Below are positions 2,788 to 52,374 of a DNA stretch of 64,000 nucleotides, one piece after another. The DNA comes from an uncultured Acidobacteriota bacterium. GTDB taxonomy: Bacteria; Acidobacteriota; Vicinamibacteria; Marinacidobacterales; SMYC01. The stretch is taken from positions 5,354 through 69,353 of the forward strand of contig CAWGBY010000021.1 of NCBI GenBank assembly GCA_963820855.1, in the 5' to 3' direction. How positions within the stretch are numbered: the stretch's first letter is position 1; every line of letters begins with the position of its first letter. A program made the position numbers and the translations under genes. The notes beneath the pieces were generated by a model, which saw only the letters and a list, made by a program, of their open reading frames with translations, did no database searches and was not told where the DNA came from.

Positions 2788-2997
2788 TCAGGTGCCGCCA
2801 TAGCCGACGGTCACCTTGCCGCCGTCGAGGATGACGGGGACGGCTCTTCCACCTCCCGTGACCGACATCATCTCCTTCAGACGAGCGGCGTCCTTCTTCA
2901 CGTCGTAATACTCGACCCCTCGTTCCGCATAGGCCTCACGGGCCGCGGTGGTGTAGGGTCAGCCAGCTTTTCCGTAAATCTTGACTTTCTCGGACAT
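2788..2997 (-). CDS. glutaredoxin-like small (seleno)protein, in-frame TGA at 2961-2959 read as Sec
   Basis: Not in the ORF track. The minus strand from ATG 2997 (AGGA 7 nt upstream) reads MSEKVKIYGKAG-TGA-PYTTAAREAYAERGVEYYDVKKDAARLKEMMSVTGGGRAVPVILDGGKVTVGYGGT*. This is a glutaredoxin fold (cis-Pro VP, GG tail) with the TGA at the first position of the CxxC-type motif. Confidence 0.6.
2925..2948 (-). promoter_or_regulatory. candidate bacterial SECIS hairpin downstream of UGA 2961-2959
   Basis: Starts 10 nt after the UGA: CCGC-GGCC-(CGUGA)-GGCC-UAU-GCGG. Two 4-bp stems, a 3-nt bulge, and a G/U-containing apical loop about 18 nt from the UGA. Confidence 0.4.
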
Positions 2998-3021: not shown

Positions 3022-3807
3022 TCAGCTCATCACCTGTCCGCCGCAGATGTTGTACGCCTGGCCGGTGATTCCGGACGCGTCGTCGGAAGTCAGGTAGAGC
3101 ACGAGCTTCGCGATCTCGGCAGGATCGAGGAAGCGCTTGAGGGGGACACCCGCGATGGCTTGCTCGCGGAATGCTTCGGGAGAGACTCCCAAGACGGCCG
3201 CCGTCTCTCGAATGCCCTGGTCCGCCATGTCGGTCTCGACCCAACCCGGACAAAGCGCGTTCACGGTGATTCCGCGGGGCGCGAGCTCGAGCGCGAGCGC
3301 CCGGGTGAATCCGATGATTCCGTGTTTCGCCGTGCAGTACGCGGCGTACCCGGGAACGCCGAACCGGCCGAGCACCGAGGACATGTTCACGATGCGTCCC
3401 CCGCCCGAGCTCATGAGCGGGAGCGCGTATCTCGTCATCCGGTAGCTTCCGGTCAAGTTCGTCGCCAGGATGCGATCCCACGATTCCTCTTCGCCGTCGC
3501 GCGGCGGGCCGAGCGGCGTCCGTCCCGAGATTCCGGCGTTGTTCACGAGGACATGAAGCTTCCCCCAGCTCTTCTCGACTTCCTCGAAGGCCCGCCGGAC
3601 CTCGTCGCCCGAGGTCACGTCGCAGGAAAGCGCGATCGCGCGGCGGTCTTTTCCGTTCCAGGAATCAGCGAGCCTCTCGAGCTCCGCGAGAGAGCGGGCG
3701 CATAGAGCGACCTTCGCTCCCTCCTCCAGATAGGCCTCCGCGATGGCGCGCCCGATCCCGCGGCTCGCGCCGGTCACGACGGCGACTTTTCCAACGAAAC
3801 GGTTCAA
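3022..3807 (-). CDS. SDR family oxidoreductase (FabG-like)
   Basis: C-terminal 261 codons of ORF 3022..4305: GKVAVVTGASRGIGRAIA, NNAG, S..YxxxK (YAAYCTAKHG). GGAGAGG SD precedes a TTG at 3807 that overlaps the NUDIX stop (TTGA). The Arg-rich N-terminal extension of the ORF is spurious. Confidence 0.9.
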   Translation of the reverse strand: MNRFVGKVAVVTGASRGIGRAIAEAYLEEGAKVALCARSLAELERLADSWNGKDRRAIALSCDVTSGDEVRRAFEEVEKSWGKLHVLVNNAGISGRTPLGPPRDGEEESWDRILATNLTGSYRMTRYALPLMSSGGGRIVNMSSVLGRFGVPGYAAYCTAKHGIIGFTRALALELAPRGITVNALCPGWVETDMADQGIRETAAVLGVSPEAFREQAIAGVPLKRFLDPAEIAKLVLYLTSDDASGITGQAYNICGGQVMS

Positions 3808-4343
3808 GGTTTCCTCTCCTTCGTCCGGGAACAGAAGTAGCGGCGCGTGTAAGCGCGAAGCGCGTCCCGCGTGCTCGGAAAGGCGAGCTCCTCCCAGGGA
3901 ATGTCCGGAGGCGCGAAGGTCGCGAGCTCGAGGCTCTCGTCTTCGGCCCGTGGCTCCCCCGAAACGAGGTCCGCGGCGTAGACCACGACCACGATGGGCG
4001 AGCCGGAGTAGGAGTACACGTCGAGAAGCTCCCGCACGCGCACCTCGACGCCGGCTTCCTCTCGCGTCTCGCGGACCGCCGCTTCCACGACCGTCTCGCC
4101 GCGGTCGACGAACCCGCTCGGGAACCCCCACTTTCCGTAGCCGGGCTCGATCGCGCGCTTCAGCAGGACGAGCTTGCCGTCGACTTGAAAGAGAGTTCCC
4201 GCAGCGACCTTTGGATTCAGGAAGAAGACGAACTCGCAAAGGCGGCAGACGAGCCTCTCGGGCTCGTTCTTCTTCAGCGTCTTCGAATCGAGGGCGCCGC
4301 CGCACTTGGGACAGAAGCGGTACTCGTCCGCGGGAATGCTCAT
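3804..4343 (-). CDS. NUDIX hydrolase with N-terminal zinc ribbon
   Basis: CPKCGG..CRLC ribbon, then a Nudix box GFPSGFVDRGETVVEAAVRETREEAGV. Alternative start at 4367. Confidence 0.85.
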   Translation of the reverse strand: MSIPADEYRFCPKCGGALDSKTLKKNEPERLVCRLCEFVFFLNPKVAAGTLFQVDGKLVLLKRAIEPGYGKWGFPSGFVDRGETVVEAAVRETREEAGVEVRVRELLDVYSYSGSPIVVVVYAADLVSGEPRAEDESLELATFAPPDIPWEELAFPSTRDALRAYTRRYFCSRTKERKP

Positions 4344-4390
4344 GGTGGTCGACCCGTGATCTATCATCCGGTCCAGGGGAGAGTCAAAGA

Positions 4391-5338: not shown

Positions 5339-7176
5339 ATCCAAACGGGAAATTCTCGAGGCCGCGGCTGCGGGAGACGCCATCGCGGAGCTCCTGATTC
5401 CGGTCCTCGAGGAGCCCACGGGCGTTTCGAGCGCGGGATTCCCCTACTTGCAGCAGAGCGCGTGGGAGACGTTTCGCGATCGGGTCCCTCATCTCCTCGG
5501 AATGGGACAGAGAGTGGTCGATGCCTGCGATCGGTTGAGCTCGGCCTTCGACCGCGGAGACTCCGCGCTGGAGGATCGGGAAGCGATTCGAAACGCGTCG
5601 ACCGTCGTCCGGCAGGTCGCGCTCACCGCGGCCATCACCGCGCCCCCCGATCTCTGGCTCTTGCGGCACGTGCTCGGCGCTTTCGCGGATCTCGGGCTTC
5701 TCGAACGGCTTTCGCAAGGGGAAGCCATCTACCCCGATGCCTGCGCCGTTCCAATCGACGGCCGGACAAGGCGGCTCGATGCCGCCGAGCTCGACAAGGA
5801 CCTCCATTTCCTTCTGTCCCGGGGGCTCGTCGAACAATACGACGAGGGATTTCGCATCGCGGGTCATCCCCGGGCAAGAGACCTCTTCTCTCGCATTGGA
5901 CCGCTTCCCTGCCCGAATTCCCGCGAACCTGACGAGTCTGTGGAGGCGTCTTTTCACCGGTTTGGTGCTCTCGAACGAGGAGCTCGAACTTCTCCTCGAT
6001 CTCGGCAAGGCGGCACGGCGCCGCATCGACACCGCGCAGAACCACTGGATTCCCGACCGCGACGAGCTCGGGCTCGGATTTCGGCTGCTGCCGATCGTCC
6101 TCGGCCTCCGGGCGAGCGGGCGGACCTCCGCGCTGGTCGAGTCCGCCGCGACGCGGCCCGAGGAATGGAGCCGCCCGCATCCCGTGGTCGCCGCCTCCGC
6201 ACTCGAGGTCCTCACCGCTTCCGGTTGGATGCGGCGGGACGGCGAGAGCTACAAAGTGACGGCCTCGGGGGCGAGAGGCTTCGCGAAAGGCCCCGGGCCC
6301 TTCGGCATCATCGAGACCTACCACCCGTACATGCAGCGGGCTCGCGAGATCCTCCTCCACGGGACATCGTCCGCTCACGTGAGCCGCGGCGAGAACGTGG
6401 GAGCGAGCCAGGACGCGAACCGCGCTACCTTCGAACAGGCGAACGACGCGCTCGATCGCTTCTGCCAGGACACGGGCTTTCAGTATCAGGTATTCATCGA
6501 GCACGCGATCGGCCGCGGCGAGGCGACGCGCCAGAGGTTCGCCCGGTCGGGCGGCGCGCTCCACTACGTGGGGGCGGATCTCGAGGACGCCGCGATCGAC
6601 GCGGCGATGGAGGAGCAGCGCCGGGGCGCCCTACCCGCGAGCATGATGTTCGTGCGGCAGGCGGACATCGGCCGGCCCGAGGTCCTGACCGCGGCGCTCT
6701 CGAGCGCGGGACTCTCATCCGACGGCGCGGTGATGCTCGTCGGAAACGGATTTCACGAAGTGCGCGGCCAGTCGGACGAGAGCATGGTGGAAGTCTTCCG
6801 CGCCTATCACCGCGCGGGATTCCTGCTGCTCTTCACCGAAGAAAGCGCGCTCTCTATCGATGATTTGAGGGCTACCGCCTGGAACACCTACCACGCGGGG
6901 TTCAAGTACGTTCACGACAAGAGCGGCCAGGCGCTGCGGCCCGCGGAGCCGCTGCCGCGACCCGCGCGGCTCGGCCGTCCCATGCTCGCTCCGTGGAGCG
7001 AATGCGCCCGGCACGCCGGCTACGTGCGCGCGGACGCCTACTGCACGAGGACGCGCACCGTTTACCCCTACCGGCCGAAGGGCGGGTTCAACCCTTCGAT
7101 CAGCGTGAACCACTTCTTCGTGCCGTCGCGGCTCGCGGGAACGATCCGCTCGGCGAAGTCGGGCTCGGAACCGTAA
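5331..7176 (+). CDS. hypothetical protein, winged-helix-like N-terminal repeats plus degenerate class-I methyltransferase-like C-terminal domain; one frameshift near 5895-5930
   Basis: ATG 5331 overlaps the OCD stop by 8 nt. Frame of ORF 5268 (MSRSKREILEAAAAGD...GLVEQYDEGFRIAGHP) continues in the frame of ORF 5737 (LTSLWRRLFTGLVLSNEE...). The C-terminal part has YVGADLEDAAIDAA, MLVGNGFHEV and VNHFFV. Confidence 0.55.
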
Positions 7177-16061: not shown

Positions 16062-19000
16062 GTGCCCAAAACCCTGTTAGTGCGTTTCGGCGTAGCCTTG
16101 TCGGTTCTCGGTCTTTCGATTCCATGGCTGGGAGCGCAAACTCGCGACCCGAGCGAGCTCCGCTCGCGCTCCGGAATCGTCACCATGGGCTCTCAGAGTC
16201 TCGAAAAAGAAGCCGACATCGCGGAACGGCCGCATGGTCCCGGTGGTCGTGAAATTGGACGTGCCGTCGGTCGCCTCCTATCGAGGCGGGATCGCGGGTT
16301 TCGCGGCCACGAGCCCTCGGGCGAGAGGGCAGTCGCGCATCGCTCTTTCGAGTCCCGAGGTGAGGGCCTACCGGACGTTTCCTCGAGACGAGAACGGCGA
16401 CGCTCGAGAACGCCATCCAGCGCTCCGTTCCACGCGCCCGGATAGTGCACCGGTTCCACACGGTGGTGGGCGGAGTCGTCGCTTCTCGTGCCCGAGGAAG
16501 AAGTCTCCGAGCTCTACCGGCTTCCGGGCGTTTCGGCCGTCTACAAAGACGAGCTTCTGCACCCTGACACGTATCGAAGCCCGAGGTTTCTCGGCGCACC
16601 CGCTCTCTGGGCGCAGCTCGGCGGCGAACGGAAGGCCGGAGAGGGCATCATCGTCGCCAACATCGACACCGGAGTCTGGCCGGAGCTCGAATCTTTCGCC
16701 GACCCGGATCCGTCGGGTCGCCCATATCCGGCGCCTCCCGCCAAATGGACCGGGACGGCCTGCGACTTCGGCAACACGGCCTGGAACTCGAACGACGCGG
16801 ATTTCGACTGCAACAACAAGCTCATCGGCGCACAGCGTTTCATGAATACGTACGACACCGTTCGAGATCGTCGACGCGAGCGAGTTCAAGTCGGCGCGCG
16901 ACGATGACGGCCACGGGAGCCATACCCTGAGCACCGCGGGAGGGAACTCCGGCGTCGAGCCGTCGGTCAGTTTCGACGCTCCGACCCTTCCCGAAATCTC
17001 GGGCATCGCCCCGAGGGCGCACGTCGTCGCGTACAAGGTGTGCGGCATCGAGGGCTGCTACGGCTCGGATTCGGCCGCGGCCGTCCAGCAGGCGATCCTG
17101 GACGGAGTCGACGTCATCAATTTCTCCATCAGCGGCGGCGAGAGCCCGTACTCCGACTTGGCGAGCCAGGCTTTTCTGGATGCCTATGAGGCGGGGATCT
17201 TCGTCGCCGCTTCCGCCGGGAACGACGGACCGGGCGCCGAACACCGTCGCGCATCGCGAGCCCTGGACCACCACCGTCGCCGCGAGCACCTCCGACGTGT
17301 ACATCGCGGGCAGCGTCTCGCTCGTGGGAAGCTCGACCCTGGAGCTCGTCGGAACGTCGGTCACGGGAGAGTTCACCGCCCCGGTCGTTCTGGCCGCGGA
17401 CTTCGACGGCGGCGATCCCGGCTGCTTCGACTCCGTTTCCCGCCCGGGACCTGGAACGGCGAGATCGTCGTCTGCGCTCGGGGAACCGTCGCGCGCGTGA
17501 CGAAAGGCGAGAACGTTATGGCAGGTGGAGCCGGAGGCATGATCCTCTATAACCCGACGCCGAACAGCCTCGATCACGACAAGCACTTCCTCCCCGCGGT
17601 CCACGTGGACGCGGCGGAGGGAACCGCTCTCCTGGCGTTCATGGCGGCCCAGACCGGGCCCCGTCATGGGAACGATCCATCAGGGAGTTCCCCGAAACGT
17701 CGAGACCCACCCCGGCGGGCCTCCGTCCCTTTTCCCGGGCACCGCCGGCGGCGCGGACGTCATGGCGGATTTCAGCTCTCGAGGCGGACCGCAGCAGACG
17801 CTCGGCATCAGCAAACCCGACGTCACCGCGACCGGTGTCGCGATTCTCGCCGGCGGCACGCCGATGCCGAACGACTCGGGAGAGACGGCTTCGTTCGGAG
17901 CTCCCGGCGAGTACATGTTCATCAGCGGAACGTCGATGTCGAGCCCGCACGTGGCCGGCGCCGCGAGCGCTCTTGAAAGATCTCCATTCGGACTGGACGC
18001 CCTTGGCAGATCAAATCCGCTCTGATGACGACGGCCAAGAACCACGGCGTCGTCAAGGAAGACGGAGCGACACCTGCCGATCCGTTCGACTACGGCTCGG
18101 GACGCATCGACCTGCTGCCGAGCGGGATCGCCCGGCTTGACGTTCGTTTCCCCGACCCGAGCGGACTTCGAGGGACACCAGAACGACCTCTGGAACGTGA
18201 ACTACCCGAGCCTCTACATCCCGGTCCATCCGGGAAAGACGGAGGTCGAGCGCACTCTCCGAAGCGAGCGCAAACATACCGTCGCTGTGGTTCGCCTGGG
18301 TGTCCTCTCCCAGAGACCTCGACGTCGACGTGGAGCCTCGGTTGTTCCTGATCCGGCCCGGGCACGAACAAGACGCTCGAGATCGAAGTCGACAGCCGCG
18401 ACGTGCCCATCGGGGAAGTGCGCCACGCCACTCTGCATCTCGCGGATTTCCACGATCGGCTCGACTTTCCCATCACGATCGTGAAGCGGCAGGGTGCGGT
18501 GAGCCTGACCAAGACCTGCGAACCAACGGAGCTCGAGAAGGGCGAGAAGACCGAGTGCGTCATCGAGATGACCAACACTTCCTTCGACACCGCCGCCGTG
18601 CGGCTGCGTGATCACGTTCCGTCGGAGCTCGAGGTCCAGACGGTCAGCGGCGCCTCGGGCCGCCGGGTCCTCACCTTCGAGGGCAACCTCGCCGGCGCCC
18701 AGCCGCCGAACGTGACCGCGGTCGTGGACCCGTTGGCCTCTCCCTTTGGCTATGTCCCCCTCGCGGCTTTCGGCATTCCGCCGATAGCCGCCAGCGACGA
18801 AAGCCTCGCCAACTTCGGCATTCCAGCCGTTCCTCTACGCGGGCGAGACGTACGGCACGATCGGCGTGGTCTCGAACGGATACATCGTGGTCGGCGGCGG
18901 AACGGCGGACGATATCGACTTCCTCAATACGAACTTTCCCAACCCGCTCAGGCCGAACAACGTTCTCGCGCCCTGCTGGACGGACCTGGATCCCGGATCG

Positions 19001-20582: not shown

Positions 20583-23177
20583 CTACCCTTTGCGGAATGT
20601 GAAGCTCCCGCCCGAGTCCACATCGACCAGGACCCGGTCGCCCTCGCGGAATTCACCCTGAAGGAGCCGGAGCGAGAGCTCGTTCGAGATCTTCTGCTGG
20701 ATCAGCCGCTTCAACGGGCGCGCGCCGAAGATCGGATCGTAGCCCTCTTCCGCCAGGCGTTTCTTCGCGGCTCTCGTCGAGCTCGAGAGCGATTTTGCGG
20801 TTCGCGAGGAGCTCCCTGAAGCCGGGCGAGCTGGATGTCCACGATCGCGACGAGGTGCTCTCGGCCCAGGGGGCCGAAGACGATCACTTCGTCGATGCGG
20901 TTCAGAAACTCCGGACGGAGCTGGTCGCGAAGCTCCTCGAGCACCCGGGTGCGGATCGCGTCCTGGCTCGCTGCGCTCCGGGTCATCTCCTGGATGGTAT
21001 GGCTCGCGATGTTCGACGTCATGATGATGACCGTGTTCCGGAAGCTCACCACGCGGCCCTGGCCGCTGGTGAGCCGGCCGTCGTCGAGAATCTGGAGAAG
21101 AACGTTGAAGACGTCGGGGTGGGCTTTCTCGATCTCGTCGAAGAGCACCACGCTGTACGGCTTGCGCCGCACCGTCTCGGTGAGCTGCCCGCCCTCGTCG
21201 TAGCCCACGTAGCCCGGAGGAGCGCCGATGAGCCGCGCGACGCTGTGCTTCTCCATGTACTCCGACATGTCGATGCGGATCATCGACGTCTCGTCGTCGA
21301 ACAGGAACTCCGCGAGCGCCCGGGCGAGCTCGGTCTTGCCGACCCCGGTCGGGCCGAGGAAGAGGAAGGAGCCGAGGGGCCGGTTGGGATCCTGGAGCCC
21401 GGCCCGCGCGCGGCGGATCGCGTTCGACACCGCCCGGACCGCTTCTTCCTGACCGACCACCCTCTTCTGGAGGCGCTCCTCCATCCGCACGAGCTTGTCG
21501 ACCTCGCCCTCCAGGAGCTTCGTCACCGGGACACCGGTCCATTTCGAGACCACGGCGGCGATGTCCTGAGCGTCGACCTCCGTCTTGAGGAGCGTCTTCC
21601 CGCCGGACGAGAGCTCGGCCTCCGCTTTTGCCAGCTCCTCCTCCAGCTTCGGCACCTTCCCGTAGGAAAGCTCCGCCGCCTTGTTGTAGTCGAACTCGCG
21701 CTGGGCTCGCTCGATCTCGACCCGGGTCTGGTCGATCTCCTCCTTGATCCTGCGAATCCTCTGCGCGACCTCCCGCTCGCGCTGGAGCTGGGCTTCGAGG
21801 GCGCTTCGCTGTTCCCTCAGATCCGCGAGCTCCCGCTCGATGCGCGAAAGGCGCTCCTTGCTCGCGGCGTCTCGCTCTTTCTTCAGCGCCTCCCGCTCGA
21901 TCTCGAGCTGCATCGCGCGGCGCTTGAGGTCGTCGAGCTCCTGCGGGTCGGAGGTGATTTCCATCCGGAGGCGCGCCGCGGCCTCGTCCATCAGATCGAT
22001 CGCCTTGTCGGGGAGGAAACGGTCGGAGATGTAGCGATCCGAGAGCACCGCGGCGGACACGATGGCCGCCGTCGGAGATGCGGACGCCGTGGTGGGACTC
22101 GTAGCGCTCTTTCAAGCCGCGGAGGATGGAGATGGTGTCCTCGACCGTGGGCGGCTCGACCACCACCGGCTGGAAGCGCCGCTCGAGCGCGGCGTCTTTC
22201 TCGATGTGCTTCCGGTACTCGTCGAGGGTCGTCGCGCCGATGAGGTGCAGCTCGCCCCGCGCCAGCATCGGCTTGAGCATGTTGGAGGCGTCCATGGAGC
22301 CTTCCGCGGCGCCCGCGCCGACCACGGTATGGAGCTCGTCGATGAAGAGAATGACGTCGTCGCGATCCTGGATCTCCTTGAGCACCGCCTTCAGACGCTC
22401 TTCGAACTCGCCGCGGTACTTGGCGCCGGCCACGAGCGCCCCCATGTCGAGGGTGACCACGCGCTTTTCCTTCAGCGATTCGGGCACGTCCCCGCGGACG
22501 ATGCGCTGGGCGAGGCCCTCCACGATCGCCGTCTTGCCGACGCCGGGCTCGCCGATGAGAACGGGGTTGTTCTTGGTGCGCCGGCTCAGGATCTGGATGA
22601 CGCGGCGAATCTCATCGTCCCGGCCGATGACCGGATCGAGCTTGCCTTTTCGCGCCAGGTCGGTGAGGTCTCTCCCGTATTGCTCGAGCGCGGCATAGGT
22701 CCCTTCGGGGGTCTGGCTTCTGACCCGCTGCGTCCCGCGGACTTCCCGTAAGGCGGCGAGGAGTCCGTCGCGCTCGACTCCGGCGTCCTTCAGAAGGCGC
22801 GCGGCCGGGTTTCCCGCGTGCGCGAGGATCGAAAGAAGGAGGTGCTCGGTCGAAACGTACTCGTCGCCGAAGGTGTCGAGCTCGTCGTGCGCCCGAACCA
22901 GCACTGTTCGCAGCCGAGGAGAGATGCCGGGCCCACCGGTCGCGCCGCTGACGCGCGGGAACTTTCCGATCTCCGTTCGAACCTGCTGGATGAGCGCGCC
23001 GAGCGCGACGTTCATCTTCGAGAGGACCTGCGGAACGACGCCCTCGGCCTGCTCCAGCAGGCTCAGCAGCAGATGCTCCGGCTCGACCTGGCTGTTTCCG
23101 TTCCGCTCGGCCAGGCTCTGGGCGGCTTGGGTCGCCTCCTGAGATTTCTGAGTGAAGCGGTTTATGTCGAACGCCAT
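20583..23177 (-). CDS. clpB: ATP-dependent chaperone/disaggregase ClpB; 2-3 frameshifts (about 22055 and 20770-20800)
   Basis: ATG 23177 gives [18 protein letters not shown]1 GEPGVGKT. Coiled-coil middle domain. NBD2 [11 protein letters not shown] in ORF 20711..22060. The C-terminus returns to the first frame ([12 protein letters not shown]). Total of about 865 codons. Confidence 0.95.
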
Positions 23178-23254: not shown

Positions 23255-24956
23255 ATGGTGAAGCGCTACTTCGTCTGCCCTGATTCGTCGCCGCCGCGCG
23301 AGTCCGCGTTTCGCCGATACCTATCCCCGCCAGCCGGGAGTGGACGCGCTTCACTATGCCTTCCGGCTCACCCTGAGCGACGACACCGACGAGATCGAAG
23401 GCGAGTCGGTGCTCGACGTGCGCTTTCTTCGTGAGGACGTTCCATCGATCGCTCTCGATCTGGTGAACGCGCGAGAGGGGAAGGGCATGACGGTCCGCGC
23501 GGTTCTTTGGGATGGCGTCCCTGCGGAATTCGAGCACCGCGACGATCGTTTGACCGTGACTCTGCCCCAAGCGCCTTCTGCCTCCGACCGGAGGCAGCTC
23601 ACCGTTCGGTACCGTGGGACGCCCGCCTCGGGGCTTCGCATCGGGCCGAACCTCCACGGGGATCGCACGTTCTTCAGCGACAACTGGCCGAATCGGGCGC
23701 GTCACTGGCTTCCGACCATCGATCACCCGTACGACCGGGCCACCTGCGAGCTCATCGTGACGGCGCCGTCCCACTATCAGGTGATCTCGAACGGACTTCT
23801 CGTGGAAGAAACGGACTTGCAATCCGGGGCGCGTCGCACCCACTGGAAGCAGTCGGTGCCCATCGCTACCTGGCTCTTCGTGCTCGGCGCGGCGCGCTTC
23901 GCCGTCGATCACTATGACCAGGTCGGAGGGCGATCCCTTCAATCCTGGGTCTATCCCCAGGACCGCGATCGCGGGTTCCGTGACTTCTCCTACCCCACCC
24001 GGCAGGCGCTCGAGTTCTTCAGCGAGAGCGATCGGGCCGTACGCGTACGAGAAGCTCGCGAACGTGCAGTCCGCGAGCATCGGCGGCGGAATGGAGGCGG
24101 CGACGGCGATCTTCTACGGGGAGGAACTGGTGAAGGGGGAGCGCGATTCCCGCCTTCGCGACATCATCATTCACGAGATCGCGCACCAGTGGTGGGGGAA
24201 CTCGGTGACGGAAGCCGACTGGAATGACGTCTGGCTCTCGGAGGGCTTCGCCACGTACTTCACGCTTCTCTTTCGCGAGCACGCGTACGGCCGCGACGAC
24301 TTCGCGCGGGGCCTCGAAGACGCTCGCCGTCAGGTGCTGGAGTTCCACGCGAAAGATCCGGAGTACCGCATCGTCCACGAGAACCTCGACGACATGTCGC
24401 GGGTGACGACGAGCCAGACCTATCAGAAAGGGCGCTTTCGTCCTCCACATGCTTCGCGGCGTCGTGGGCGACGAGGCTTTCTGGCGGGGAATTCGGTCGT
24501 ACTATGAGGAGTTCTCGACGAGGAACGCGACCACCCTCGATTTCCGGCGAGCGATGGAGGAGGCGTCGGGGCAGCGATCTCGCTCGGTTCTTCCGGCAGT
24601 GGCTCGAGCGCGGCGGGACTCCCGCGCGTCGAGGGGACCTGGCGAGTAGCAGGCTCCGCGCTCGAGGTCGATCTCCGTCAGACCCAGGCGGGAGAGCCGT
24701 TCGAGCTCGAGATTCCCGTCGTCATCGAGACTCGAGGGCGGCTCGCTCGCCGCGGGTCGAGAAATTACGGATGACGGAGCGAGAGGCGAAAGCGACCTTC
24801 CCGCTCGAAGGCACAATGCGGGCGGTCGCTCTCGACCCTGAGCTCTGGGTGCTGATGGAGTCGAGCATTCGTTCGAAAGTAGCACATACGCCGTCGCCGC
24901 CCCCTCGAGACGCTCCGCGGCTCTCGCGATGGACAGGCGAACTCAGAGCGTTTTGA
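23255..24956 (+). CDS. M1 family metallopeptidase (aminopeptidase N-like); 4-5 frameshifts
   Basis: [14 protein letters not shown].., [10 protein letters not shown] and WLSEGFATY motifs across ORFs 23340, 23914, 24449 and 24504. N-terminal start is uncertain. Confidence 0.85.
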
Positions 24957-35980: not shown

Positions 35981-36478
35981 ATGTCTTTGACCGATGCACA
36001 AGCTCACGCGGAGCGGGAATCTCTCGTCGAGCGCTACATCCGCAAGCCCGCCTACACCGGGTTCGAGAGCGAGGCCGCGGGGGTCAACCACCTCGCGTTC
36101 ATCAGCACCGATCTCGACAAGACCATCGAGTTCTACACCCAGGTCATCCGGCTCAAGATGCTGCGGGTGAGGGCGCATGACGAAGACCCGCGATCGACCC
36201 AGGTGTTCTTCGACATGGGACGAGGGGAGCTTCTCGCGTTTCTCCGCGTGAACGACATGAAGGAGAAAGCGCGCCTCGGACTCGGCGGATTCCACCACGC
36301 CGCGCTCACGGTGACCCGCGAGCAATACGAGGCGGCGAAAAAGCGCCTCGACGAGAGGGGAATCAAGTACAGCACGATCTCGCACGAGATCCTGGACACC
36401 ATCACCCTCACCGACCCGAACGGGATCACGCTCGAGCTCTCGGTCTGGAACGTCGACCCGAAAGACGTCCAGATGTGA
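35981..36478 (+). CDS. VOC (glyoxalase/bleomycin-resistance/dioxygenase) family protein
   Basis: GVNHLAFISTDLDKTIEFY..GGFHHAALTV..ITLELS. Intact 165 aa. Confidence 0.85.
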   Translation: MSLTDAQAHAERESLVERYIRKPAYTGFESEAAGVNHLAFISTDLDKTIEFYTQVIRLKMLRVRAHDEDPRSTQVFFDMGRGELLAFLRVNDMKEKARLGLGGFHHAALTVTREQYEAAKKRLDERGIKYSTISHEILDTITLTDPNGITLELSVWNVDPKDVQM

Positions 36479-37938
36479 CAACGGGACTCTCGGGCCCCGT
36501 CGTTCTCGTCTCCTATCTCGTTCTGGTCCTCGCCATCGGGTGGCTCTCGTCCCGCGGGCAGGGAACCCCCGAGGATTTCTGGGTCGCGGGACGTAGCTTT
36601 GGAGTGCCGCTTCTGGTGGCGGCGAACGTCGGCTCCATCCTGCACGGGGGAGCGATTCTGAGCCACGTCGGATTCGCCGCCCACGTCGGGGGAGTGGCCG
36701 TGACCACGAACCTGTCGTACGCGCTCGGGTTCGCGGTGATGTTCTTTTTCTTCGCGGCGAAGCTCCGCCGCTCGCGCGGGTTCACCCTTCCCGACTTCAT
36801 GGGCGACCGGTTCGATTCGCGCCTGCTCCGAGGCTGGACCGCTCTCGTGGTCGCGGTGACGAGCATCCTCTATCTCGTCGCGCAGATCCGCGCGATGGGC
36901 TTCGTGATGGAGCGTCTTCTCGGGCTCGAGTTCTGGGTGGGCCAGCTCGTCGGCACGGCGATCTTCGTCGCGTACGTCGCTCTCGGAGGCCTGAGCGCCG
37001 TCGTCTGGACCAACGTCCTCCAGATAGCCCTGATGTGGATCGGACTCCTGGTCCTGGCGCCTTCCGTGTATCGCGCGATCGGTGGGTTTCGCGAGCGTCA
37101 TGGACGCGAGCGGAAGCGGTGGCTCCCGGCTGGACCTCTCCTTCCGGAGTGCAGTGGTCGACGGGATATCTCATCTCCTGGTACCTCCTCGTCTTCATCG
37201 CCTACAGCACGAGGCTCGAGCTCCTGACGAAGGTGTTCGCCGCCCGCGACGAGGCCGTCGCGCGCCGCGCCATTCCGTGGACCGCGGTCATCGTGATCGC
37301 CTTTCTCGTCTTCGGCGGGACTCTATCTGGCCGCCGCCGCGCGCGTGCTGGTATGGGACTCGATCGCGTCGCCGGACGAGGCCTTTCCGGCGATGATCGC
37401 GATGCTCCTCGGACCGCTCGGCGACGTCGCTCGCGCTCACCGGCGTCGCCTGCGCCATCATGTCCACGACCGACTCCCTTCTTCTGATGACCGGATCGGC
37501 GGTGGCGCACGATTTCCTGAGAAGGTGCGTTCACGAGCCGAGAGGAACGAAGAGGAGCGAGGCCTACTATCTCAGGGTCTCGCGGCTGACGGTCGTGATG
37601 GTGGGCGCCCTGAGCTTTCTCCTCGCGCTTCCTGACGTCGCCCTCATTCTCGAGCTCGTGGCCTACGCGCTCGCGATCGTGGGGTCGAGTTTCTTCTTCC
37701 CGCTGCTCGCGGGGCTCTGGTCGCCGCGCGTGAGCCGCGAAGCGGCGACGATCGCCTCGATCGCGGGCGGCCTCATTGCGGCGTTCTGCACGGTGTTCGC
37801 GATCCGGGAGGCGCCCTGGGCGCTCCAGGTGCACCCGGTCGTTCCCGGGCTCGCTCGTGTCCGGCGATGCTCATCGTGGTCGTGACTCTCTTCACCCGCC
37901 CGGTCCGCGACGAGGCGGTGCGGCTCTACTTCACCTGA
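36475..37938 (+). CDS. sodium:solute symporter (SSS) family transporter; about 5 frameshifts
   Basis: GTG 36475 overlaps the VOC stop (GTGA). EDFWVAGRSFG, TLPDFMGDRF, multiple TM segments across ORFs 36475, 37035, 37345 and 37460. Ends ..VRLYFT*. Confidence 0.8.
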
Positions 37939-41283: not shown

Positions 41284-42061
41284 GTGAGAATCGTCTTTCT
41301 CATCGTCGACGGCTTGAACCTCATTCGCCGCGTGTATGCGGCGACGCCGGAAGCCGAGGGCTCCCTTCATTTCGATGCCGCCCTCGCCGCGACCGTGCAG
41401 TCCTTGCGCCGAGCCCTCCTCGAGGCTTCACCGACGCATGCGGTCGTCGTCTTCGACGGAGCAGGAGCCGACTTTCCGCCACGAGCTCTACCCGGAGTAC
41501 AAGGCCGGAAGAAAGCCGATGCCCGAGGAGCTGCGCCTCGGGCTCGATCGCTACCCGGAGGCGTTCTCGAAGCTCGGAGTGTCCTCCGTGAGCAAGCCCG
41601 GAGTGGAGGCGGATGACGTCGTCGCGACGCTCGCGTCCGGAGTGGCGGTCCATGACGGCGACGTCGTCATCCTCTCGACCGATACCGCCTTCTGCCAGCT
41701 CATCTCGGAGCGCGTCACGGTTCGCGATCACTTCCAGAAGCGGCCTCTCGACGCACGCTACGTTCGGGAGAAGTTCGACGTCGGACCCGAGGAGCTCATC
41801 GACTTGTGGGCCCTCGCGGGCAGCAGCACGACTCACATCCCGGGTGTGCCCGGCGTGGGAGCCAAGACCGCGGCGCGGCTTCTCGGGGAGCACAAAACGC
41901 TCGAACGAGTGCTCGAATCCGCCTCCGGGATGAAGGGTAAGCTCGGCGAAGCGCTGCGGACGCACGCGGATCTCGCGCGATTGTCGCAGAAGCTCGCCCG
42001 GCTGCGAGTGGACCTGGACCTCGGCTGGAACCTGAAGTCGTTTCGCTACCGGGCGCTCTAG
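41284..42061 (+). CDS. xni: flap endonuclease Xni / 5'-3' exonuclease family; one frameshift near 41465
   Basis: VRIVFLIVDGLNLIRRVYAA, FRHELYPEYKAGRKPMPEEL, EADDVVATLA, LWALAGSSTTHIPGVPGVGAKTAARLL. Confidence 0.85.
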
Positions 42062-44686: not shown

Positions 44687-47329
44687 CTACTCGGAGCGCA
44701 GGGTGGCAATCGGATCGATGCGGGTGGCCCGGTATGCGGGGACGAGCATGGCGACGAGACCCACGACGATCACGATGGCCGTGACGGCGGTGAACGTGGC
44801 AGGGTCGCGTGCGGTGATCCCGAAGAGGAGCGTCGCCAGGACCTGCACCAACCAGGCGGCGCCGAGAAGCCCCAGTCCAACGCCGACGAGCGTCGGCTTC
44901 AACCCCTCGACCACGATCATCTTGAGGACGCCGCTCGAGGGCGCTCCCAGCGCCATGCAGATGCCGATCTCGCGCACGCGCTGGCGCACAGCGTAAGCGA
45001 GCACGCTGTAGATACCGACCGATGCGAGCACGAGCGCGAGAGCCGCGAACGCCGAAAGGAGGAGCATCGCGAACCGCCGCTGGCCCAGCGAGTCCTCAAC
45101 CACGCTCTCCATCGTCATGATGTCGAGTACCGGCTGTTCGGGATCGAGAGTCCGAACGGTGCCAACCATTGCCCGGGTCAGGCTCTCGGGCTCGATCGCA
45201 GTCCGCAACACCAGCGTCATTCCGCCGAAGCCCACTTGCGCTAATGGAAGGTAAATGGCAGTTTCGGGCTCTCGCTCGTCGAGCCGGTCGGTCTTGACCT
45301 CGCCCACGACCCCGATCACCTCACGCGGCTCATCCGACATGAGGCTCAACGTCAAGCGCTTTCCGATCGGGCTCTCGCCGGGCCAGAAACGAGCGGCCGT
45401 CCCCTTGGAGACGAGAGCTACCCGTGGACGGTCGAGTCCCTCCGTATCCGCGAAGTCGCGGCCCTCGCGAAGCGGGATGCGAGCGGTCTCGAAGTATCCG
45501 GGGGAAGCCACGCGCACCGCCACTACCGGCAGCTCGGATTCGGGGACGGGCGGTGCGCCTTCGACCGCCACGTACTGCGAGGAGCCGCCCGAGAGGGGCA
45601 GGTTGTCGATGAGGGCCGCCGACTCGACGAGAGGAAGGGCACGGATACCCTCCAAGACGCGGTCGAAGAAACGGATCCTCTCTTCGGGCGTCGGGTATTT
45701 GGCCTGCGGTATCTCAATGGTCGCGGTCAGCACTCGATTCACGTCGAATCCCGGATCGACGGCGCGCAATCCGGCGAGGCTGCGGAGGAGCAAGCCCGCT
45801 CCGACGAGAAGCATGATGGCGAGCGCGACCTCCGAAGCGACCAGGAGCTTCCGGACGCGCCCGTCGCCTTTCGAGGAGTTCCCCCGGGCCGAGCCCTGCT
45901 TCAACGTTTCGTTGGCATCGCGCCGCGCGATCTGCCACGCCGGCACGAAAGCGGCGAGAAGTCCCGTCGAGACCGCAATCGCCGCGGTGAAACCGAGGAC
46001 CCTCACATCGAGAGCGATTTCCCCCGCGCGCGGCAAGGCCGGCCCGAAGACGGCGACGAGAGCGTCCACACCGAAGACGGCCGCGAGGAGCCCGAACGCC
46101 CCGCCGCCGGCTCCGAGGAGGAGACCTTCCGCGAGCGTCTGCTGCATCAGGCGAGTGCGGCTCGCGCCGAGCGCGGCGCGCAAGGCGATCTCCTTCGCGC
46201 GGCCGTAGGTGCGCGCGAGCATCAAATTGGCGAGGTTGGCGCAGGCGATCAGCAGAACCAGGGCGACCGCGCCGAGGAGCATGAGAAGCGAGAGACGCGC
46301 ATCGCCCACGAGATCGTCCTGGAGGGGCACGACCAGCGCACCCCAACCTTTGTTGTCTTCGGGATACTGTTCTTCGAGCCGCTTCGAGATGGCGTCCATG
46401 TCGGCCTGCGCGCGCTCCCTGTCGACGCCCGCCTTGAGCTTCGCGATCCCCCGGTAGTTGTGATTGTTGCGGATCGCGCGCTCCTCGGCGCTCCAGCCGA
46501 GCGGGATCCACAACTGAACGTCGTCGATGAATCCCGGCGGCCTCGGCACCACACCGATCACCGTGTGGGGCATGCTGTTGAGCAGAACGACTCTCCCGAG
46601 CACGGACGGATCCGCGCCGAATCGAGATCGCCAGATCCCTTCGCTCAAGAGCACGGTTCTCGGGCCGCCCTCCCGGTCTTCCTCTCGCGTGAAGCCGCGC
46701 CCGAGGCTCGGAGACACTCCGAGAATGGGGAGAAAATCCGCCGACGCACGAGCGGTGCTCACCGCATCCGGCTCACCCTGCCCGGTCAGTGTCCGGCGCC
46801 CGATGCGGTAAATCGCCATGCGCTCGAAGACCTGGTTCTGTTCCTCCCAGTCGATGAAGTTCGCAGGGGACAAGGGAAACGTAGGGGAGTTGAAAAGATG
46901 CGGCGGCGGTGTGTGCCAGACGCTCATGATCCGATCCGCTTCGGCGAAGGGAAGGGGCTTGAGAACGACGGCGTTGACCACCGTGAAGATCGCGGAGTTC
47001 ACGCCGATGCCAAGCCCGAGAATGGCGATCCCGGCGAGGGTGAAGCCCGGATTCTTGATGAGCGTGCGCACCCCATAGCGCAGATCGCGCAGGAGAGAAT
47101 CGATCGCCGGAACCCCGCGGCGATCGCGGTACTCTTCCCGCACGCGCTCGATGCCTCCGAGCGCGAGGACGGCGTTCCGGCGCGCCTCGGCGGGATCCAT
47201 TCCCGCGCGGATGTTGTCGTCCATGTGAAGCTGCAGATGGCTTTCGAGCTCGGCTTCGAGCTCTCGTTCGGAGCCGGCGGATCCAAAAAGATTCCGGACG
47301 CGGACGAGCCAGGCGCGCAAGGTCCTCAC
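44687..47329 (-). CDS. ADOP-type duplicated MacB/FtsX-like ABC transporter permease
   Basis: GTG 47329 (GTGA overlap with the padR stop). N-terminal 'permease prefix' helix (RELEAELESHLQLHMDDNIRAGMDPAEARRNAVLALGG). Two MacB_PCD + FtsX modules. Intact. The 5' extension of ORF 44687..47689 is spurious. Confidence 0.9.
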   Translation of the reverse strand: MRTLRAWLVRVRNLFGSAGSERELEAELESHLQLHMDDNIRAGMDPAEARRNAVLALGGIERVREEYRDRRGVPAIDSLLRDLRYGVRTLIKNPGFTLAGIAILGLGIGVNSAIFTVVNAVVLKPLPFAEADRIMSVWHTPPPHLFNSPTFPLSPANFIDWEEQNQVFERMAIYRIGRRTLTGQGEPDAVSTARASADFLPILGVSPSLGRGFTREEDREGGPRTVLLSEGIWRSRFGADPSVLGRVVLLNSMPHTVIGVVPRPPGFIDDVQLWIPLGWSAEERAIRNNHNYRGIAKLKAGVDRERAQADMDAISKRLEEQYPEDNKGWGALVVPLQDDLVGDARLSLLMLLGAVALVLLIACANLANLMLARTYGRAKEIALRAALGASRTRLMQQTLAEGLLLGAGGGAFGLLAAVFGVDALVAVFGPALPRAGEIALDVRVLGFTAAIAVSTGLLAAFVPAWQIARRDANETLKQGSARGNSSKGDGRVRKLLVASEVALAIMLLVGAGLLLRSLAGLRAVDPGFDVNRVLTATIEIPQAKYPTPEERIRFFDRVLEGIRALPLVESAALIDNLPLSGGSSQYVAVEGAPPVPESELPVVAVRVASPGYFETARIPLREGRDFADTEGLDRPRVALVSKGTAARFWPGESPIGKRLTLSLMSDEPREVIGVVGEVKTDRLDEREPETAIYLPLAQVGFGGMTLVLRTAIEPESLTRAMVGTVRTLDPEQPVLDIMTMESVVEDSLGQRRFAMLLLSAFAALALVLASVGIYSVLAYAVRQRVREIGICMALGAPSSGVLKMIVVEGLKPTLVGVGLGLLGAAWLVQVLATLLFGITARDPATFTAVTAIVIVVGLVAMLVPAYRATRIDPIATLRSE

Positions 47330-47676
47330 GTCGCCTCTCCGCTGCCAGTGAGGAACCGCGCCATGATCTCGGAGGTCTCCTCCCACTGTTTCGTGTCGCG
47401 CTCGATCCGGCGCCGGCCTGCCTTCGTCAGTCGATAGAATTTGGCCCGGCGGTTGTTGTCGGAGACGCCCCATTCCGACGCGATGAGTCCCTCCTGCTCG
47501 AGCTTCAGGAGGGCGGGATAGAGAGTGCCGTAATTGATGGAGAGCCGGCCGGCGCTGGTCTGCTCGATGCGGCGCGCGATGCCGTAGCCATGCTGCGTAC
47601 CCATGGTCAAGAGCGTCCGCAGCACCATCAGGCTCAGCGTCCCCTGCCAGACCGAATTGCGCTCGCCGCTCGTCAT
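47326..47676 (-). CDS. PadR family transcriptional regulator
   Basis: MTSGERNSVWQGTLSLMVLRTLLTMGTQHGYGIARRIEQTS..YGTLYPALLKLEQEGLI. 116 aa. Confidence 0.9.
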   Translation of the reverse strand: MTSGERNSVWQGTLSLMVLRTLLTMGTQHGYGIARRIEQTSAGRLSINYGTLYPALLKLEQEGLIASEWGVSDNNRRAKFYRLTKAGRRRIERDTKQWEETSEIMARFLTGSGEAT

Positions 47677-47683
47677 ATGGCTC

Positions 47684-47715
47684 TCCCATAGGAATCTAGC
47701 TCGATTCCTATGGGA
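47684..47715. promoter_or_regulatory. 13-bp perfect palindrome with 6-bp spacer, candidate PadR operator
   Basis: TCCCATAGGAATC-TAGCTC-GATTCCTATGGGA. It begins 8 nt upstream of the padR ATG and overlaps its GGGAGAG SD. Confidence 0.5.
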
Positions 47716-49334: not shown

Positions 49335-50093
49335 CGGCTGGCGAGGCTCCGGACGAAATGCATCGTGAACCGCGCCGCCTGATGCGCCGCGATCTGCCCC
49401 AGGCGCCGGTAGTCTTTTCCCGGGTTCGGCTGCGCGAGGTTGCTGCCGCTCCGGATCACGAGGTGGGGCACGCCGAGCTGCCAGCATACTTGCGCGGCGG
49501 CGGAGCCTTCCATCTCGATGAGATCGCATCCGAGCTTTCGCCGGATGTCGTCGATCTTCTGCTTCGTCAATCCGAAGACGTCCCCGGAACAGACTCTCCC
49601 GGTCCTCACGAGCGGCTGGTAGGTGTGGCCGTTCGCGGTCACCTGGTTTTTGGGAAAGGTGCGAATCGCCGATCGAGCGAGGCTCAGGAGAGCGGCGTCC
49701 GCGGAGTACTCATAAGGCGTCATTTGTCCCGCGAGCGGACCGCGGACCTTGCGGTAGATCATCCCGGACTCGGTCCAATTCCCGGCGTTGTGATGCGATG
49801 TCTTCTTCGAAATGATGACGTCTCCGGTTCGAACTTCCGGATTGAGGCGCGCACCGGAGCCGGTAAAGATGAGCTCGGAGGGTCGGAAGCGGTGGAGGAA
49901 GAGCGCCGAAGTCATCGCCGCGTTCGTGATGCCGACGCCGGTGACGGCGACGATCACGGCGCGTGCGCCGAGCTTGCCTCGGTGGAAGGGATACCCCTCG
50001 AGCTCACCATCGCTTCTCGAGGACAAGCGCGGGAACGATGGAGGTGACCTCCGACGGCATCGCGCCCAGAATGAGGGTAACGGCTTTGGCCAT
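49331..50093 (-). CDS. nucleoside phosphorylase / MTA-SAH nucleosidase family (PNP_UDP_1); one frameshift near 50015
   Basis: ATG 50093 gives MAKAVTLILGAMPSEV. Then ORF 49331..50026 (VTGVGITNAAM, CDLIEMEGSAAAQVC). Confidence 0.8.
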
Positions 50094-50204
50094 GGCCGGC
50101 GCGCGATGCTATCACGAGCCGCCGCCGCTCCCCTCCTTCCGCCGATTGGAAACGAGATCGTCTGCTGCTACGCTTCCTGAAGTCTCGAACGGAGGGACTC
50201 GGCC

Positions 50205-52374
50205 ATGCCTTCAAGCCGGATACGTCGTCTCTCGCGCAGGGAATTCATCCACACGAGCGCAGCCGGTGCCACCGCTCTGCTCGGGTCGGAAGCGATCCCG
50301 ACGAGCGAAGCTAGAAATGCCGAAGTGCGCGGCGCCTGCATGCACGATTGCCCGGATACCTGCTCCTGGATCGTCACGACGGAAAACGGCCGTGCGGTCG
50401 GATCTTCGGGGGGACGCCGACCATCCGCTGACCCGCGGCTCGCTCTGCGAAAAGATGGACGGCTTTCTCACCGACGTCCTGTACAACCCCGATCGGCTCG
50501 TGCATCCCCTGCGTCGAGTGGGTCCGAAGGGTGAGGCCCGGTTCGAGCGAGTCGGCTGGGACGAAGCGCTCGACGATGTCGCGTCACGGTTGAAGAGGAT
50601 CCTCGACGAACACGGAGGCACGGCAATCCTCCCGTACAGCTATATGGGAACCGAGGGGATCGTCCAGGGGAAGTCCCTGGATCGCCGCTTCTTCGCTCGT
50701 CTCGGGGCGACGCGGCTCGAACGAGACATTTGCGGCGCCACGGCGCACGCGGGCTTGACCGTAACCCTGGGCACCAGCACCGGGATCCTTCCTGAGGATA
50801 TCCAGAAGAGCCGCATCATTGTTATCTGGGGCTCGAATCCTGTCGTGACCAACCCCCACGGCTGGCCGCATGTCGAGGAGGCGCGGCGTCGAGGGGCGCG
50901 CCTCGTGGTCGTCGACCCGCTGAGAACTCCGACCGCCGAGAGAGCCGACTGGCACCTGCGGCCGCGCCCCGGAACCGACGCCGCACTCGCCCTCGGCCTG
51001 ATGCACGTGATCGTGCGAGAAGGGCTTCACGACAAGGAGTACATCGAGAAGTACACGATCGGTTTCGAGCGGCTCCAGGAACGGCTCCGGGACTATTCCC
51101 CCGAACGGGCCTCCGAGCTTACCGGGCTCCCGGCGCAAGAAATCATCGACCTCGCGAAAGCCTACGCGACGACGCGGCCCGCTCTGATCCGGACGCAGAT
51201 TGCCATGGAGAAACACTCGAACGGGGCGATGATGTATCGGAGCATCGCCTGTCTTCCGGCGCTCGTCGGTGCGTGGCGGGACGAAGGAGGCGGTCTCCTC
51301 CAGTTCACGGCGGGTTGGTTCCACGAGGCGATGGCTCTCGGCTCTCTGATGATGCCGGAGCTGGAGGATCCGAAGACGCGATCCGTGAACATGGTGCAGC
51401 TCGGAAACGCGCTCACCGATCAAGCGATGGATCCTCCCATCAAGGCGCTCATCGTCTACAACAGCAATCCGGGAACCATCGCGCAGAATCAGAACCTCGT
51501 TCGCCAGGGCTTGAAGCGGGAGGATCTGCTGACGGTCGTTCTCGATCACTTCGTGACGGACACCGCCCGCTTCGCAGACTATGTATTTCCCGCGGCGACA
51601 CAGGCGGAATATCTCGACCTGGTGACACCCTGGGGCAGCCCCTATCTGACTCTGAACCTGCCCGCCGTGGAGCCAGTCGGCGAAGCGCTTCCGAACACGG
51701 AGTTCTTTCGACGTCTGGCCCGCCGATTGGGACTCGACGAGCCGTACCTTCATGTCTCCGACGAGGAGCTCGTCGAGCAAGCTCTGAACAGTAGTCATCC
51801 CTACCTGAAGGGCATCACCTACCAGAGGCTTCGCCGGGAGGGATGGGCGCCTCTCGATTTGCCGCGGCCGTTTCTTCCGTTCGCCCAGGGCGGCTTTCCG
51901 ACTCCTTCGGGAAAATGCGAGCTCTATGCGGAGCGGCTCGAGGCCATCGGAATGGATCCGCTTCCGCGGTTCGACGAGCCCGGAGGCGATCCGTCCGACC
52001 GGAAACGATATCCGCTCACCTTCATGAGCATGAAGTCGAATCGCTATTTCCTGAACTCGAGCCACGCGAACCAACCCCGTCATCTCAGGGCCTCCGGAGA
52101 GCCCCGCCTGCAAATCCATCCCAAGGATGCCGCCGCGCGCGGCATCGAGGACGGTGACGAAGTGCGCGTCGAAAACGACCGAGGGTCTATCGAGATCAAG
52201 GCCTCGGTGAATGACGCCACCCTCGAAGGTGTGGTCACCATGCCGCACGGTTTCTGGGCCTCGCTCCTGCCCGGAGGCTCGTCGGCGAACGCTCTCACTC
52301 CCGACGGCCTGAGCGATCTGGGCGGCGGCGGCTCCTTCTACGACGCGAGGGTCGAGGTCGAGAAGACCGTCTGA
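50205..52374 (+). CDS. Tat-exported molybdopterin oxidoreductase (DMSO reductase superfamily); one frameshift near 50400
   Basis: MPSSRIRRLSRREFIHTSAAGATALLG, 4Fe-4S motif CMHDCPDTC..(C). It continues in ORF 49963..52374 (RGDADHPLTRGSLCEKM, IIVIWGSNP, C-terminal beta-barrel DGDEVRVEN). Confidence 0.85.

Follow-up and report, generated by a model that had tools for sequence, protein, structure and literature searches.

The gene described here occupies positions 2997 to 2779 on the minus strand of the window, by which is meant the whole 64-kb stretch of DNA that was analysed. It is a complete CDS of 72 codons plus a stop, and its translation reads MSEKVKIYGKAG-U-PYTTAAREAYAERGVEYYDVKKDAARLKEMMSVTGGGRAVPVILDGGKVTVGYGGT-U-AV-stop, a selenoprotein of UXX-star family 1. 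A Shine-Dalgarno-like AGGA can be read from the sequence at 3008-3005 (minus strand), 7 nt upstream of the ATG at 2997, and the N-terminus, M-S-[ED]-K-V, agrees with the N-termini of related proteins in alignment. Two in-frame UGA codons are assigned to selenocysteine (Sec). The first (2961-2959) encodes residue 13 within the active-site motif G-U-P-Y-T, where U13 aligns with the leading Cys of the CPYC motif of glutaredoxins; the second (2790-2788) encodes residue 70. The nucleotides TGA GCG GTC TGA at 2790-2779 give the protein the end ...GYGGT-U-A-V-stop, with the true stop codon, TGA at 2781-2779, following Ala71-Val72. The original prediction had described a 69-codon protein with a single Sec, ending at 2790-2788. 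The start codon, the AGGA and the first in-frame TGA are all present where that prediction placed them, and reading from 2997 to 2788 reproduces its peptide exactly, MSEKVKIYGKAG-TGA-PYTTAAREAYAERGVEYYDVKKDAARLKEMMSVTGGGRAVPVILDGGKVTVGYGGT-TGA; the supposed stop, however, is read here as a second Sec codon, which is followed by Ala-Val-stop and by a SECIS-like hairpin of its own.

The genes around this locus had been listed as NUDIX, SDR, racemase, nnr and tsaE, and these were found as described, all on the minus strand: a NUDIX gene (3804-4367), an SDR gene (3022 to ~3795), an Asp/Glu racemase gene (2139-2750), nnr (396-1946) and tsaE (1 to ~395), the last of which is partial. The upstream SDR gene ends in a TGA (3024-3022), as does the UXX-star gene itself; UGA is thus an ordinary stop codon here, and the genetic code is standard. 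The possibility that the operon context offers a clue to function was considered and rejected, as no loci other than the three closest, from Acidobacteriota, preserve the gene order of the window, and the neighbours vary across the family. A census of 101 ORFs flanking about 50 loci revealed no neighbour conserved beyond single lineages, and the commonest flanking families (RtcB with 7 ORFs, HD with 6, and BrkB and GGDEF with 5 each) were each confined to one lineage. With no recurrent neighbour family, the context carries no indication of what the protein does.

In profile searches, for which U was written as C, the product matched the NCBIfam equivalog model NF041114, "UXX-star selenoprotein family 1", at 105.2 bits against a curated cut-off of 72, over profile positions 1-70 of 70. 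When the last three residues were removed the score fell to 97.8 bits and the match covered only positions 1-67 of 70, so that the C-A-V tail contributes 7.4 bits. The parent model NF041212, "Uxx-star family glutaredoxin-like (seleno)protein", was matched at 83.6 bits (cut-off 66), and the Pfam Glutaredoxin model PF00462 at 38 bits (gathering score 22.9). No glutaredoxin, NrdH or mycoredoxin equivalog model reached its cut-off in the NCBIfam search: Grx3 (TIGR02181) scored 36.8 bits against 90, with a match that stops at profile position 57 of 80 and a motif of UPYT rather than CPYC, while NrdH (TIGR02194) scored 16.1 bits against 85.75 and mycoredoxin (TIGR02200) 29.9 bits against 89.5. The models for UXX-star families 2 and 3 and for the HUGP/GUXX-star fusion (NF041211, NF047338 and NF045501) gave weak matches of 51-58 bits, their cut-offs being 100, 97 and 325. 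The active-site motif of the window protein has the form U-x-x-T, and its UPYT is the commonest variant, present in 56 of 78 relatives; the U-X-X-stop ending is shared by all 78. The original prediction had pointed to a family of glutaredoxin-like (seleno)proteins with a U-x-x-[T/S/C] motif, membership of which was to be settled by HMM search. That family exists, and with NF041114 and NF041212 both above their curated cut-offs the window gene is a genuine member of the curated, already known UXX-star selenoprotein family 1.

The UXX-star families were reportedly named in a paper by Haft and Tolstoy in 2025, and the "star" most likely denotes the stop codon, judging from the U-X-X-stop pattern. 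The family 1 entry carries two Sec residues and the family 2 entry one Sec, in a GxGU motif; family 1 also goes by the name "Distant Grx-like protein 1" in the prokaryotic selenoproteome literature (PMC13188914). In the parts of the GOS paper that were searched, a "Grx-like" family with a UxxC motif is described, and the terms "distant Grx" and "C-terminal" gave no match. Experimental characterisation of a UXX-star family 1 member was not found in the literature searched.

A scan of one genome per species yielded 147 relatives, of which 80 loci were taken for comparison; the codon counts given here come from 78 gene copies in 77 sources. These relatives are spread over the Acidobacteriota, Syntrophales, Methylomirabilota, Nitrospirota, Binatia, Leptospirales and other groups, the nearest being three Acidobacteriota MAGs at 75-81% identity. 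In most loci the active-site codon is TGA, and the alignment shows strong conservation of the peptide on both sides of it, including the part downstream of the TGA at 2961-2959. Orthologues of both the Cys and the Sec type exist. Sites 1 and 2 together read U/U in 68 of the 78 copies and C/U in the other 10. The TGA/Cys orthologues and the conserved flanking peptide uphold the earlier assignment of 2961-2959 as the Sec codon of a glutaredoxin-fold protein with a U-x-x-T motif.

Ten nucleotides after this codon begins the first SECIS-like hairpin, CCGC-GGCC-(CGUGA)-GGCC-UAU-GCGG (2948-2925, minus strand), which lies within the CDS. Its two stems had been drawn in the original prediction and correspond to the minimum-free-energy fold: an apical stem GGCC/GGCC (2944-2941 with 2935-2932) closed by the loop CGUGA (2940-2936), and a lower stem CCGC/GCGG with a UAU bulge. 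The folding energy is unexceptional compared with shuffled sequences (z of -0.9 and -1.3) in this 66% GC sequence, and energy alone therefore proves nothing. Evidence from covariation was sought in a gapless alignment of 48 nt, counted from the UGA, of 46 distinct TGA-containing homologues. RNAalifold predicted no structure on this alignment, and the covariation was taken from a pair count on the named structure. The 4-bp apical stem (columns 18-21 with 27-30) spans two Ala codons and two third-codon positions, and is paired in 92.4% of cells as against 85.6% in shuffles. At the wobble positions the pairs switch among GC/AU/UA/GU and CG/UA/AU/UG, and 11 cells are changed on both sides where 1.9 would be expected. 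For covariation the score is 0.269; shuffles give 0.136, none of the 500 attains 0.269, and the slid controls are far below. At least 90% of the sequences have a G as the second nucleotide of the loop (column 23). A minority, comprising the Methylomirabilota and some deltaproteobacterial lineages, have a different hairpin at the same place. The hairpin thus covaries across the TGA-containing relatives, which the original prediction had proposed as a check. At its gathering thresholds Rfam gave zero matches in the 64-kb window, and scores that high would not be expected of hairpins as short as a bacterial SECIS.

At the second site, the codon that follows GG[TSA] is TGA in 78 of 78 copies and never TAA, TAG or Cys, and in every copy an in-frame stop stands exactly two codons beyond it. 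The last residue is valine in 73 of the 78 (UxV-stop). If 2790-2788 were simply the stop of a single-Sec protein of 69 residues, and the hairpin that follows a terminator or an incidental structure, TGA would be serving in its normal role in this genome, and the gene callers that end the Cys-form homologues P0001 and P0002 at that TGA would be correct. Such a stop would nevertheless have to be an invariant TGA in all 78 copies, while the codon two places further on varies as a real stop is expected to: among 53 distinct tails it is TGA in 33, TAA in 11 and TAG in 9. It would also have to be followed by a second stop at codon +3 in 53 of 53 tails (the figure for 1310 ordinary stops, taken from long ORFs at these loci, is 3%), and by a conserved valine in a position that was supposedly untranslated. 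The three further HMM positions filled by the tail, with the bits that they add, likewise argue against termination at this codon.

The hairpin behind the second UGA bears on the same question. With the sequence AGCCGGC-(AGUUC)-GCCGGCU (2777-2759, minus strand), identified from its fold and from covariation, it starts 10 nt after the UGA, its stem running from position 14 when the U of UGA is counted as 1, and it lies past the true stop because only two codons follow the second UGA. It occupies the 28-nt spacer ahead of the racemase ATG (2750), which begins 9 nt past the hairpin, and its fold energy is -18.3 kcal/mol (z of -1.93). Hairpins after stop codons are common, as the single-Sec interpretation would note, and yet 49 of the 53 distinct tails have a hairpin with 6 bp or more whose start lies 12-17 nt from the U of UGA; at random positions the rate is 8%, and at ordinary stops it is also 8%. 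Just 2 of the 53 tails continue into a UUUU run, and the window copy has no U-tract, so that the element is not an intrinsic terminator; the closeness of the next gene also speaks against that role. The stems differ wholly among lineages (GCCGGC, UUCGGCC, GCCCUGCA, GGCCCAU, AAAGCCGC, CCUUCC and others). From a MAFFT alignment RNAalifold derived a 6-bp helix with compensatory changes at all 6 pairs, in which 83.8% of cells are paired compared with 61.2% in shuffles. This helix has a covariation score of 0.620, whereas shuffles give 0.243, with none of 500 attaining the observed value, and slid controls 0.204 or less. The hairpin keeps a constant distance from the UGA, and its second loop position is an invariant G, mostly followed by U; the alignments of both hairpins thus show covariation together with a conserved G in the loop. 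On this evidence a 69-residue product ending at 2790-2788 is highly improbable, and the minus strand from 2997 to 2779 very probably encodes a 72-residue UXX-star family 1 protein with U13 and U70, each UGA being recoded by way of its own hairpin. Each hairpin would act as a bacterial SECIS that recruits SelB carrying Sec-tRNA(Sec), and we infer SelB-dependent Sec insertion at both sites.

The predicted fold of the second element also includes a lower stem, UCUG at 2783-2780 (overlapping the true stop) with CAGG at 2756-2753. Within this stretch of the minus strand (2783-2752) the CAGG overlaps an AGGA at 2755-2752, just upstream of the racemase ATG at 2750. Through this overlap, translation of the racemase could conceivably be coupled to reading past the second UGA; this is a weaker possibility than the diselenide centre considered below.

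Twelve homologues were found in the protein database, of which two, P0001 and P0002, are full-length Cys forms (GKAGCPYT) and ten are fragments of 37-39 residues that start at internal GTG or ATG codons, a pattern usual where gene callers cut a selenoprotein gene. The DNA of the "Cys form" P0001 ends T-TGA-GGC-GTG-TAG and then continues into a hairpin; the database versions of P0001 and P0002 are both cut at the second UGA. One deltaproteobacterial MAG (L024) carries two UXX-star genes in tandem about 200 nt apart, with ends near 5834 and 6254 (plus strand), each with both TGA codons and its own post-stop hairpin. Four of the relatives fetched are off-pattern (L047, L021, L048 and L079); L047 has an insertion, GFGGESGVGFT-U-AV, and the N-terminal half of L079 looks frameshifted.

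The original prediction had counted two recoded TGA codons in the 64-kb window, the other being in a deiodinase-like gene. That gene is present (8708-8099, minus strand; PF00837, 72 bits), with its TGA at 8495-8493 in the motif VFGSYT-U-PPF and a hairpin about 8 nt after the UGA, and since 2790-2788 is itself a Sec codon the window holds three candidate Sec codons. The second Sec codon of the UXX-star gene adds support to the view that this probable acidobacterium decodes Sec, and the in-frame TGA of the deiodinase-like gene lends it indirect support. No selA, selB or selD was found among the roughly 40 ORFs scanned in the window, which likewise contains no tRNA gene, including tRNA-Sec. Three adjacent ORFs of 345, 466 and 607 residues at 55.9-60.2 kb were considered as selD, selA and selB and were rejected by NCBIfam search: the matches of the 607-residue ORF were all to effector-type families and fell well short of the cut-offs, and the 345- and 466-residue ORFs had no NCBIfam match. 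Elsewhere in the window are an ADOP family duplicated permease of 1000 residues (44687-47689, minus strand; TIGR03434, 928 bits) and a molybdopterin oxidoreductase of 803 residues (49963-52371, plus strand; PF00384 and PF01568). The permease is in keeping with an Acidobacteriota origin, to which the nearest relatives of the UXX-star gene also point. The molybdopterin oxidoreductase superfamily includes some enzymes that are selenoproteins; the ORF in the window is uninterrupted.

The deiodinase-like gene appears to be frame-broken. The frame of its Sec codon leaves family-like sequence after ...EDEWQMDSNVES, near 8365-8352, and the family-like C-terminus KVVFDQPQTFEAR...YVIDQAGRIAYKGGMGPFRFEPEELREFL runs on in another frame to a stop at 8101-8099, a break that suggests a 1-nt indel, whether through misassembly or because the gene is a pseudogene. 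Other ORFs match partial profiles or begin in mid-domain (36475-37224, 41336-42058, 23914-24504 and 17038-17973 on the plus strand, and 20714-22060 on the minus strand). An SSF symporter ORF reaches only from profile position 1 to 174 of 406, a 5'-3' exonuclease match begins at profile position 58, a ClpB-like ORF starts inside AAA_lid_9, and M1 and S8 peptidase ORFs are fragments. Together these partial ORFs suggest indel errors or gene decay across the window, and they bear on the trust to be placed in single-base calls of this assembly. Were the TGA codons of the UXX-star gene themselves sequencing errors, marks of a decaying pseudogene, or codons read as a standard amino acid, the apparent indel-type breaks and the lack of sel genes among the ORFs scanned would fit. 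This would leave it to chance that both TGA codons recur at the same positions, within a conserved flanking peptide, in dozens of genomes from many phyla, and that homologues have Cys where the TGA stands, as is characteristic of Sec; decoding as a standard amino acid is further opposed by the termination of neighbouring genes at UGA. Such an origin for the two codons is even less credible than a single-Sec protein, and recoding of both to Sec is the reading carried forward here.

The structural model available is that of the Cys-form homologue P0001, which ends before the tail Sec and has a mean pLDDT of 80.3. Its elements, beta1 (5-9), alpha1 (14-26), beta2 (30-34), alpha2 (39-48), beta3 (57-60) and beta4 (63-66), follow the strand and helix order of glutaredoxins without the C-terminal helix, and its last three residues are disordered. 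The best structural matches in the PDB are glutaredoxins and NrdH, with TM values of 0.70-0.79 over the query, and these proteins are 10-30 residues longer; by sequence, only ordinary glutaredoxins were matched in the PDB (E ~1e-4). Absence of the C-terminal helix also follows from the Grx3-type profile matches, which end about 23 positions before the end of the profile. As modelled, the protein is a minimal glutaredoxin fold, beta1-alpha1-beta2-alpha2-beta3-beta4. Since beta4 and GG lie at the C-terminal end of the modelled fold, the tail G-G-T-U-x-V directly follows the beta4/GG motif, and U70 is predicted to sit in a flexible tail, G-G-T-U-A-V.

The placement of the two Sec residues invites a proposal for their function. 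Only three copies have kept the resolving Cys, its place being taken by Thr or Ser in all the others; the Sec in the tail never varies, and the tail itself leads straight off the GG motif, which in glutaredoxins borders the active site. For these reasons U13 and U70 may form an intramolecular Se-Se redox couple (a selenenylselenide), or an Se-S couple in the Cys-13 variants, in which the tail Sec70 would resolve the adduct made by the active-site Sec13. Such a couple has a little short of an even chance of being correct. The more specific version, a diselenide centre whose tail Sec is a built-in resolving group at the place where glutathione binds in ordinary glutaredoxins, is possible but leans to the doubtful side. 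Three relatives have the full CPYC motif alongside the C-terminal Sec, and the tail Sec is therefore not simply a substitute for a lost resolving Cys. The two Sec residues might instead be ligands for metals or metalloids (e.g., Hg, As or Cu) in a small selenol-based chaperone or carrier, and two soft selenolates, one on a flexible tail and one at a helix N-terminus, would suit metal binding; metal or metalloid ligation has been raised as a suggestion in a review (PMC13188914). Against this alternative stand a fold and cis-Pro/GG motifs of the thiol-disulfide oxidoreductase type, and metal-resistance or transport genes did not recur among the 101 neighbouring ORFs of the ~50 loci or among the window ORFs scanned. 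Metal ligation is rather unlikely on these grounds, and the Sec13-Sec70 couple is the preferred reading.

The value of the locus is mainly one of annotation, in that recognition of the U-X-X-stop ending leads to the correct 72-residue product. UXX-star genes are missed or mangled by standard gene callers, and the earlier sequence-only reading likewise stopped at the second UGA. As a well-defined family member with two clean SECIS elements, this gene is a reasonable candidate for expression, redox or metal-binding assays.

The window protein shares with UXX-star family 1 a length of about 70 residues, a Grx-like fold, the U-x-x-T motif and a second Sec three residues from the end, and it differs from that family in nothing of substance, being an orthologue that had not been catalogued and that probably comes from an Acidobacteriota genome. 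UXX-star families 2 and 3 and the HUGP/GUXX-star fusion have the same small Grx-like module and the same type of C-terminal tail, but the fusion carries an extra N-terminal domain of ~160 residues that is absent from the window protein. Classical dithiol glutaredoxins are alike in the Trx/Grx fold, in the active site at the N-terminus of helix 1, and in the cis-Pro (VP) and GG; the window protein differs from them in having Thr for the resolving Cys, no C-terminal helix and a tail Sec. A Sec-containing glutaredoxin from Clostridia has a U-x-x-C motif (cited in PMC13188914). The motif of the window protein, in contrast, is U-x-x-T. Mammalian thioredoxin reductase carries its redox-active Sec on a flexible C-terminal Gly-Cys-Sec-Gly tail, a few residues before the stop codon, and its SECIS accordingly lies beyond the stop. 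The window gene resembles it in having a tail Sec near the stop and a SECIS beyond it. The two differ in protein fold and in the form of the signal, which in the reductase is a eukaryotic SECIS in the distant 3' UTR and in the window gene is a hairpin immediately past the stop, separated from the UGA by ~10 nt as is usual in bacteria.
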